Positions 30,901 through 31,573 of a stretch of DNA of 64,000 nt are shown piece by piece. Origin of the DNA: an uncultured Gemmatimonadaceae bacterium (GTDB lineage Bacteria; Gemmatimonadota; Gemmatimonadetes; Gemmatimonadales; Gemmatimonadaceae); contig CAZPCC010000395.1 in NCBI GenBank assembly GCA_964584905.1, positions 3,079 through 67,078 of the forward strand, read 5' to 3'. The stretch's first letter is position 1. Each line of letters starts with the position of its first letter. The notes under the pieces are model-generated. The model worked only from the letters and a program-made list of their open reading frames with translations, was not told the DNA's origin and made no database searches. The position numbers and the translations under genes were made by a program.

Positions 30901-30918
30901 GAAAGGACGAGTCCTTTC
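30901..30918 (+). terminator. Terminator-like hairpin downstream of LTD gene C
   Basis: gaaagga cgag tcctttc gives a perfect 7-bp stem with a tetraloop, 69 nt after the stop codon. Confidence 0.45.
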
Positions 30919-30929
30919 GCGCGCCTGTT

Positions 30930-31573
30930 GTATGCCCAGAATGGATCGTGACTTGGAGGTGCAAGTCCTCCGGGGAGCTGGTCGTAGCGACCCGAGTAAA
31001 CCGCTAGGCGGCGACCGTGAGGGTACTGCTGAAAGAAGCGGCTAGCGAATCTGCGCGTAAGGACACGAACCCGATAGGAGGCATTGCCGAGCAGGGTGAG
31101 CGGGCAGCAGACCGCGAAGCTCTCACGACTAAGGCTCAAGCGATGTAAATCCGACAATGGTCCCGAGACGGCGACCATTCTTACCTGTGGAGATCTGGCC
31201 TTACGCGTGAAATCGCGACGCTGACGGGAGTCGACGGTGGAGCCAGAAGTCAGCAGAGGCCTGAGTGGCGGCGCGGCATCGTCCGAAGCCCGGACTGCGA
31301 AGGACCGAACGAGGAGGAGCGCCAGCTCACAGAATGTGGGAAGGCAGCCACCAGAAGTGCGCGATGCGGAGCTCGCGCCAAAGGGCAGAGGTAAAGCCTC
31401 AGCGTACAGCGCAGTGGTGAAGCCGGACGGGCCGGCGTAAACGAACGCTCAGTCGCACTCGCTGGCATCAGCGAGCCGTGACCTCCCTTCTCGAACCGCG
31501 CCGGATGCAGACCCGCATGTCTCGTGGTGTAGGAGGGGAGTAGCGACGGTCAGTCGCTACCCCCTATCCCGAT
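30930..31573 (+). ncRNA. ORF-less group II intron-like ribozyme RNA (IIC-like); the ends are approximate
   Basis: There is no credible ORF. Several blocks resemble, from memory, the Oceanobacillus iheyensis IIC intron: GUAUGCCCAGAAUGG.., GGAGGUGCAAGUCCUCC, CUGAAAGAAGCGG, GGACACGAAC, CAUUCUUACCUGUGGAGAUCUGG, CAGAAGUCAGCAGAGG, GAAGGACCGAAC and GAACCGCG...CGUGGUGU (D5-like). A terminal hairpin GUAGCGAC-GGUCA-GUCGCUAC follows (D6-like). Confidence 0.6.

Follow-up and report, generated by a model that had tools for sequence, protein, structure and literature searches.

The window considered here is a stretch of 64,000 nucleotides (nt) from contig CAZPCC010000395.1 of an uncultured Gemmatimonadaceae bacterium. 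It contains a plus-strand gene for a protein of the DUF4876 (lamin-tail-domain) family, a hairpin behind that gene, a 644-nt element that codes for no evident protein and, beyond it, a small convergent open reading frame (ORF; Table 1). The 644-nt element, at 30930-31573 on the plus strand, is very probably an ORF-less group II intron of class C (IIC), inserted at the hairpin at the 3' end of the DUF4876 gene. The upstream protein is 100% identical to the NCBI protein P0001, and its named relatives are proteins of Gemmatimonadota metagenome-assembled genomes (MAGs). New in this intron are its host phylum and its sequence; its architecture, that of a terminator-targeting IIC intron which has lost its ORF, is already known.

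Table 1. Features of the intron and its surroundings, in positions of the window (D, domain; J2/3, junction between domains 2 and 3; EBS and IBS, exon- and intron-binding sites)
Feature	Position	Strand	Details
Upstream host gene, DUF4876 / lamin-tail-domain family, 449 aa	29483..30832	+	Pfam DUF4876; same orientation as the intron, which lies downstream
Target-site stem-loop, GAAAGGAC GA GUCCUUUC	30901..30918	+	8 bp; terminator-like, without T-run
IBS1, last 4 nt of the 5' exon, UGUU	30926..30929	+	pairs with EBS1 31106-31109
Whole ORF-less group IIC intron (very probable)	30930..31573	+	644 nt; 5' GUAUG ... CCCGAU 3'; Rfam matches, intron-less ortholog L004, ends of 35 relatives
Domain 1 (D1), approximate borders	30930..31196	+	includes the RF02001 match 31011-31179
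Block GUAUGCCCAGAAUGG	30930-30944	+	present as listed in the preliminary description
Block GGUGCAAGUCC	30958-30968	+	present as listed
Block CUGAAAGAAGCGG	31029-31041	+	present as listed
Block GGACACGAAC	31062-31071	+	present as listed
EBS1, AGCA, loop of hairpin GCGG-GCAGCAGA-CCGC	31106..31109	+	covariation with 5'-exon positions -1 to -4 in 33 relatives
Block CAUUCUUACCUGUGGAGAUCUGG	31176-31198	+	present as listed
Domain 2 (D2)	31197..31244	+	closing pair G31197-C31244, swapped relative to the family C-G (compensatory); RF01998 match starts here
Block CAGAAGUCAGCAGAGG	31244-31259	+	present as listed
J2/3 (AGAAGUCAGCAGAGG) and domain 3 (D3)	31245..31311	+	J2/3 block invariant in alignments; weak RF01998 match 31216-31305
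Block GAAGGACCGAAC	31300-31311	+	present as listed
Domain 4 (D4) stub, 173 nt, without ORF	31312..31484	+	alignable with the D4 stubs of 10 further ORF-less introns
D5-like block GAACCGCG..CGUGGUGU	31493-31530	+	present as listed
Domain 5 (D5)	31495..31528	+	CGC triad and AU bulge kept; 2-nt insertion 31500-31501; mismatches C31502/C31523 and A31509/C31514
Domain 6 (D6), branch-point A31566	31530..31571	+	basal helix weakened by G->A at 31531
First 3'-exon nucleotide, U, presumed IBS3	31574	+	U in 26/35 relatives
Convergent small downstream ORF	31631..31897	-	context; L003 and L004 have a 75-aa gene at the same place and orientation

A preliminary description, made from the sequence letters, had taken this region for a IIC-like group II intron RNA on the basis of a series of sequence blocks; all of these are indeed present, colinear on the plus strand and in the order of domains 1-6. 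The comparison with Rfam models that it proposed gave a significant match: across the whole 64-kb window the sole match at gathering thresholds is to RF02001 (group-II-D1D4-3), which is matched end to end by the segment within D1 with 70.6 bits (E 4.5e-12; gathering score 32). A permissive scan of 30700-31800 adds RF01998 (group-II-D1D4-1) with 30.3 bits, under its gathering score of 35, and returns zero matches to RF00029 (D5/D6) even at E<=10. To collect relatives, species-representative genomes were scanned with a degenerate pattern of the 5' end, which gave at least 120 matches; both ends are definable in 35 relatives, namely 34 loci among the matches listed and the plasmid locus L002. A D5-D6 covariance model derived from these 35 relatives matches 31485-31573 of the window with 61.3 bits (E 6e-13), and the covariance-model matches bear out the assignment to group II. 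Moreover, domains 1-6 of the window intron are colinear with the 35 relatives from end to end, and its two ends agree with theirs; the GUAUG of the window has its counterparts in GUACG and GUGUG variants, which are seen in relatives that include full-length ones.

The borders follow from orthologous loci in which the intron is absent. In L004 and L003, whose flanking proteins are 86% and 78% identical to that of the window, the gene order is shared, down to the 75-aa convergent gene 156-197 nt past the DUF4876 gene. Deletion of exactly 30930-31573 renders the window colinear with L004, the common sequence being GGACGAGUCCU.U..C.UCUGUU up to the point of insertion and (U/C)CC beyond it. In the alignment across this junction the window reads GGACGAGUCCUUUCGCGCGCCUGUU on the 5' side and UCC-CGACUGCCG on the 3' side, and L004 reads GGACGAGUCCUGU----CGUCUGUU and CCCACGGCUGCCG, respectively. 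Because the L004 site has the same hairpin and CUGUU without the intron, both borders are fixed; the colinearity and the shared hairpin likewise imply that the hairpin pre-existed at the site. This comparison suggests that the intron arrived after the lineage of the window had split from those of L003 and L004. Hence, the earlier proposal of an intron parked behind a hairpin is borne out in its placement, and needs correction in two particulars: the spacer between hairpin and intron is 11 nt (GCGCGCCUGUU) rather than about 12, and what had been called a terminator is a stem-loop that folds, together with its extension, at -13.7 kcal/mol, is devoid of a T-run and is not flagged as a canonical intrinsic terminator in the terminator scan.

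Recognition of the 5' exon can be traced by covariation. The intron columns homologous to EBS1, which in the window sits inside the RF02001 match, can pair with the exon at each of positions -1 to -4 in 28-30 of 33 relatives, and in the window itself AGCA forms A-U, G-U, C-G and A-U pairs with its own exon UGUU. No covarying intron column is seen for exon positions -5 and -6 in these 33 relatives. On the 3' side the first exon position is U in most copies, and for that reason covariation does not pin the EBS3 partner, for which A31138 and A31183 are the candidates.

The IIC introns A.v.I2 of Azotobacter vinelandii, O.i.I1, B.h.I1 and GsI-IIC target intrinsic terminators. Of the 35 relatives, nearly all follow a GC-rich hairpin with a T-run at a distance of 5-11 nt, and since hairpins with T-runs are the signature target of class C introns (PMC4424553, PMC4748821), the relatives can be placed in class C. 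Their protein tells the same story: that of L064, a full-length relative from a Gemmatimonadota genome, aligns end to end with the GsI-IIC reverse transcriptase (RT; E 6.5e-138), next best with the Eubacterium rectale IIC RT (1.3e-95), and scores far lower against IIB (1e-42) and IIA (1e-38) proteins; it contains an RVT_1 and a GIIM domain only, with no endonuclease domain. Thus, the IIC-like character recorded in the preliminary description is supported by the terminator targets of the relatives, the 4-bp EBS1-IBS1 pairing, the CGC triad of D5 and the GsI-IIC-like, endonuclease-less protein of the relatives; the subfamily is accordingly IIC, with the window intron as one of its divergent members. 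Over the ribozyme, a distance of 28-31% separates the window intron from its nearest relatives among the matches listed, and its identity to the relatives found is ~62-74%. A plasmid search yielded similarity over D1-D3 only, at 60-80% and in Proteobacteria, with numerous matches in Sinorhizobium; the plasmid loci L001 and L002 have an RT ORF in D4. A lineage-specific gapped pattern that includes the swapped closing pair of D2 retrieved four loci only (L125-L128), which are 68-72% identical and are not siblings of the window copy, and neither RF02001 nor the family D5-D6 model detects a second intron copy in the 64-kb window.

Two of these loci deserve a remark in their own right. In L125 (605-1806, minus strand; JGI Ga0272446_1021674) about 1200 nt separate the 5' end from D6, a length between those of ORF-less and full-length copies; its D5-D6 is perfect at 104 bits, and the locus may represent a partial deletion of the protein gene. 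In L002 (2977-5292; Marinobacter sp. M3C plasmid NZ_CP092285.1) the intron lies between cbiB and cobD, its RT ORF is split into parts of 298 and 210 aa, and the annotated cbiB coding sequence (2078-3046 of the locus) extends ~70 nt into the intron, such that the C-terminus of CbiB is probably mis-annotated.

In the 5' part of the window intron the structure is well preserved. Of the 97 pairs in the family consensus for D1-D3, the window copy retains 83; in 20 of these both partners have changed, and in 7 one partner has. The two-sided compensatory changes indicate that these domains have evolved for a long time under structural constraint. The 14 pairs scored as broken were not counted as lesions, as some are in part alignment artefacts or fall in conserved internal loops such as IC1. 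Similarly, a raw count of deviations (24 of 112 conserved columns in the 5' part) does not by itself speak for decay, because closely related proteobacterial copies dominate the sample and 20 of the changes are compensatory.

The protein gene, on the other hand, is gone, in keeping with the earlier observation that the region has no credible ORF: read in its sense frames, the intron stays open for 81 codons at most, and the three ORFs of the intron that were tested have no Pfam match. What does remain is a relic at the nucleotide level. A profile of the D4 stubs of ORF-less copies matches positions ~360-530 of full-length introns, a segment that includes the start codon of the protein at ~401, and on this basis the D4 stub of the window comprises the 5' part of D4 and the opening codons of the gene that was lost, fused to the stretch around the stop codon of that gene (UGACCUC..). 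The absence of an RT from the intron and from the rest of the window, which had also been remarked upon, holds in a tblastn search with the intron proteins of 23 relatives, which found none anywhere in the 64 kb.

It is in D5 and at the base of D6 that the window copy departs from its relatives. D5 is nearly invariant in 34 distinct relatives from several phyla: the family form has a CGC triad and a G-U wobble, a 2-nt bulge (AU), an upper helix of 3 bp and, as its loop, GACC. Covariation backs the structure of D5 and D6, in that 96.7% of the cells are paired versus 87.5% in shuffles and 41-51% with slid partners, with nine two-sided pairs overall and 7 covarying pairs in D6. The window D5 retains the triad, the wobble and the AU bulge. 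Aligned to the 35 relatives, it has two extra nt in the 5' strand of the lower helix, a C at 31523 and an A at 31509 where all relatives have G, the latter mispaired at the top of the helix, and a U at 31522 that makes a G-U pair; the pairs that are broken here are invariant in the relatives. Just beyond, A31531 replaces a G found in all relatives and abolishes a G-C pair at the base of D6 (columns 59-98, which are G-C in 34/34 relatives and A/C here).

These changes are reflected in the folding energies and in the model scores. The D5 of the window folds at -13.9 kcal/mol (z -1.2), no better than shuffled sequences, versus about -21 kcal/mol in the relatives, and with the family D5-D6 model the relatives score 88-104 bits, two loci outside the training set included, versus the 61.3 bits of the window. 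For comparison, L074, a decayed copy with a broken ORF, scores 68 bits with the same model; this minus-strand locus of full-length size (1604 nt) has a longest ORF of 190 codons and 41 of the 97 D1-D3 consensus pairs broken, and serves as a yardstick for a decaying copy. We considered whether RF00029 has a general blind spot for the subfamily, as L001 and L002 are also without a match at gathering level, and rejected this explanation because the ORF-less relative L105 does match RF00029, with 42.2 bits; L001 appears to be truncated or disrupted, with no D5 found there. D6, for its part, still folds into a hairpin at -25.4 kcal/mol (z -4.7) with A31566 bulged 7 nt before the 3' end, much as the preliminary description had supposed. 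Its suspicion of decay in D5 likewise stands as regards the interrupted helix, with the 2-nt insertion and the broken invariant pairs, and falls as regards the non-GNRA loop, GACC being normal in the subfamily.

Elsewhere in the window, 10536-10586 (+) gives a weak D5-like match to the family D5-D6 model (13 bits, E 0.26; GCCGCCAGGU..GGACGCGG..UCCUGGUGGC); the Rfam scan places no other intron domain nearby, and the match is most likely due to chance.

Based on the condition of D5 and the base of D6, we propose, with a probability of roughly 0.6, that the window copy is a catalytically impaired and immobile intron, that is, a decaying relic. Several points weigh on the other side. In an alternative register of D5, G31500 pairs with C31523 and both C31501 and C31502 are bulged, which keeps the triad, the wobble, five pairs and the AU bulge; the change of 31523 from G to C could then be compensatory, suggesting continued selection and residual activity. 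No relative closer than about 72% identity came up, a distance at which a trait of the lineage and a private lesion of D5 are indistinguishable. The window copy is moreover the longest branch in the sample, and its divergence may in part stem from phylogenetic distance and not from decay. The 2-nt insertion in D5 could also be an error of sequencing or assembly in the MAG. Finally, the search for an RT spans 64 kb, and a helper protein could be encoded elsewhere in the genome.

The foremost competing explanation builds on these points and regards the window copy as an active, non-autonomous IIC element, in which D5 with its extra CC bulge is a tolerated variant of the lineage and the class C RT of a full-length relative serves it in trans. 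Such copies do seem to move elsewhere in the subfamily, as illustrated by nearly identical ORF-less copies at two terminators of one MAG and by an ORF-less copy that shares its ribozyme arms with a full-length one (see below), and in the window itself the EBS1 fits the adjoining 5' exon, D1-D3 bear 20 compensatory changes and the C at 31523 can pair with the inserted G31500. Yet, the D5 positions that have been hit are the very ones that do not vary among the 34 distinct relatives, the D5-D6 score lies ~30-40 bits under those of the relatives and near that of the copy with a broken ORF, no second copy with the D5 of the window came up in a scan of the JGI metagenomes for exact matches (31 nt), and the 64 kb hold no RT. 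We therefore consider an active element possible and, on this evidence, rather unlikely.

It is also conceivable that the host has co-opted the element, for instance as a structured RNA at the 3' end that makes the upstream transcript more stable or keeps transcription from running on into the convergent gene, given that it lies between convergent genes right past the 3' hairpin of the upstream one and that D6 and most of D1-D3 still fold well. This is very improbable: the closest orthologous loci are devoid of the intron, which is hence not a conserved part of the locus, its position behind a hairpin is that of an ordinary IIC target, and nothing in the data indicates a new function. As for a chance likeness or a fossil fragment of some other structured RNA, to which the missing RF00029 match and the sub-threshold RF01998 score might point, it is ruled out for practical purposes by six domains colinear with 35 relatives from end to end, two independent significant covariance-model matches, exact borders against an empty site and a fitting EBS1-IBS1 pairing.

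With the decaying relic as the favoured reading, a plausible history of the copy can be outlined. Its ancestor, either full-length or already ORF-less and helped in trans, would have reverse-spliced into single-stranded DNA 11 nt past the stem-loop behind the DUF4876 gene, a site presumably picked by means of the hairpin and the 4-bp pairing of AGCA with UGUU. The copy retains D1-D3, J2/3, the CGC triad and AU bulge of D5, the branch A of D6 and both splice ends, and of the RT/maturase gene only the ~170-nt D4 stub. Transcription would take place only through read-through from the upstream gene, and splicing without a maturase would at best be slow and proceed by hydrolysis. IIC ribozymes need their protein for efficient branching and mobility (PMC4424553, PMC4748821); because the window copy has none, efficient splicing or movement would require a related class C protein from elsewhere in the genome. 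An impaired copy could well be tolerated at this position, as it sits past the 3' hairpin of the gene, where a failure to splice would cost nothing.

The genes around the intron form a setting of their own. The DUF4876 gene next to it has a paralog at 26364-27716 (+); the two proteins, of 450 and 449 aa, are ~77% identical (P0006, same contig), and a tandem pair of DUF4876 genes is also seen in L003. Near the paralogs are genes for a TonB-dependent receptor with a carboxypeptidase-regulatory domain and for a DUF6850 protein (32976-35942 and 35939-37603, both +). The DUF4876 pair, the receptor and the DUF6850 gene look like an outer-membrane uptake cluster.

Our analysis also points to ORF-less copies well beyond the window. 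We sampled copies by their 5' end, blind to the presence of a protein gene and with at least 700 nt of downstream sequence, among the matches listed: 11 of 60 such copies are only 608-657 nt long, and where 2 kb or more follows downstream the share is 10 of 38. The eleven (L008, L016, L021, L045, L046, L047, L062, L085, L105, L111 and L120) come from Beta- and Gammaproteobacteria, Chlorobaculum and unclassified MAGs, and no two of them follow the same terminator. A homologous D4 stub of ~170-185 nt is common to ten, the remaining one, L016, being a rearranged deletion derivative.

Two MAGs are particularly informative as to how such copies behave. In MFD04716.bin.1.408, the ORF-less copies L047 (612-1241) and L014 (174-2325) are 99.7-100% identical and lie at two different terminators, which suggests that the protein-less form has moved recently; the copy in L014 is broken at intron position ~311 by a ~1.5-kb insert that encodes, on the opposite strand, a 348-aa protein, which we take to resemble an IS110-family transposase. 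In MFD03804.bin.1.259, the ORF-less L021 (4009-4640) and the full-length L080 (3967-5801) are 96-97% identical over the ribozyme arms (D1-D3 and D5-D6), with a nearly identical D6, and BLAST finds no alignment between the D4 stub of L021 and the 5' part of the D4 of L080. This mosaic suggests either gene conversion of the arms or selection to fit the helper protein that is resident in the genome. The observations in the two MAGs fit trans mobilisation and hint at exchange between autonomous and non-autonomous copies. Hence, we put forward, tentatively and with less than even confidence, that ORF-less IIC introns are an abundant and widespread non-autonomous form of an A.v.I2-like subfamily, and that the window copy is part of a parasitic lineage of this kind, its bulged D5 perhaps still being functional with the aid of a helper protein.

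These features can be set against those of known systems. With A.v.I2 and the other IIC introns named above, the window copy shares a small ribozyme, sense insertion a few nt past a stem-loop, a 4-bp EBS1-IBS1 pairing and a CGC triad with a G-U wobble under a non-GNRA D5 loop; to these its relatives add an endonuclease-less protein closest to the GsI-IIC RT, and the family a 4-bp basal helix of D6 (GGGA/UCCC). It differs from them in the want of an intron protein, in a D5 that is 2 nt longer and has broken pairs, in a target hairpin without a T-run, in its Gemmatimonadota-like MAG host and in being 62-74% identical to any relative found. ORF-less introns served in trans by the protein of a related intron are exemplified by the IIB1 family of Thermosynechococcus elongatus (PMC4424553, PMC8643678). 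As there, the protein gene has been deleted from D4 with the ribozyme kept, and among the relatives of the window copy ORF-less and full-length introns share a genome and identical ORF-less copies occupy different sites. Unlike the window copy, which is IIC and targets hairpins, and for which neither a helper gene nor a second copy came up in the 64 kb of the window, the T. elongatus introns are IIB1 and home to specific sequences.

A different precedent is C.te.I1 of Clostridium tetani, an independent ORF-less intron in a genome without an RT (PMC4424553, PMC4024640). Both are ORF-less bacterial introns with no RT nearby, but C.te.I1 interrupts a coding sequence and splices robustly and alternatively, whereas the window copy lies between genes and has a D5 that appears damaged. 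The loss of the protein gene and the erosion of ribozyme motifs also recall the degenerate ORF-less group II introns of organelles, for instance tobacco petD I1 (PMC4424553); those, however, interrupt essential genes and rely on host factors for their splicing, whereas the window copy sits behind a gene, where splicing is not required.

For the locus itself the importance of the intron is small: it follows a gene without interrupting anything and is probably inert, and 30930-31573 is best annotated as an ORF-less IIC intron. The D5 of this copy, in which an additional bulge lies between the catalytic triad and the conserved one, offers a natural test case for how much distortion of the catalytic helix is tolerated. 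The picture of the family may interest specialists: ORF-less bacterial group II introns were called rare in a 2015 review (PMC4424553), eleven turned up among the 60 copies sampled here, and surveys keyed to RT genes miss copies such as the one in the window. The relatives suggest that protein-less IIC copies make up about one-fifth of one widespread subfamily, among the matches listed, and are mobile by way of a helper protein, which bears on the loss of autonomy in group II introns, a loss that is commonly assumed as one stage in the emergence of spliceosomal introns.

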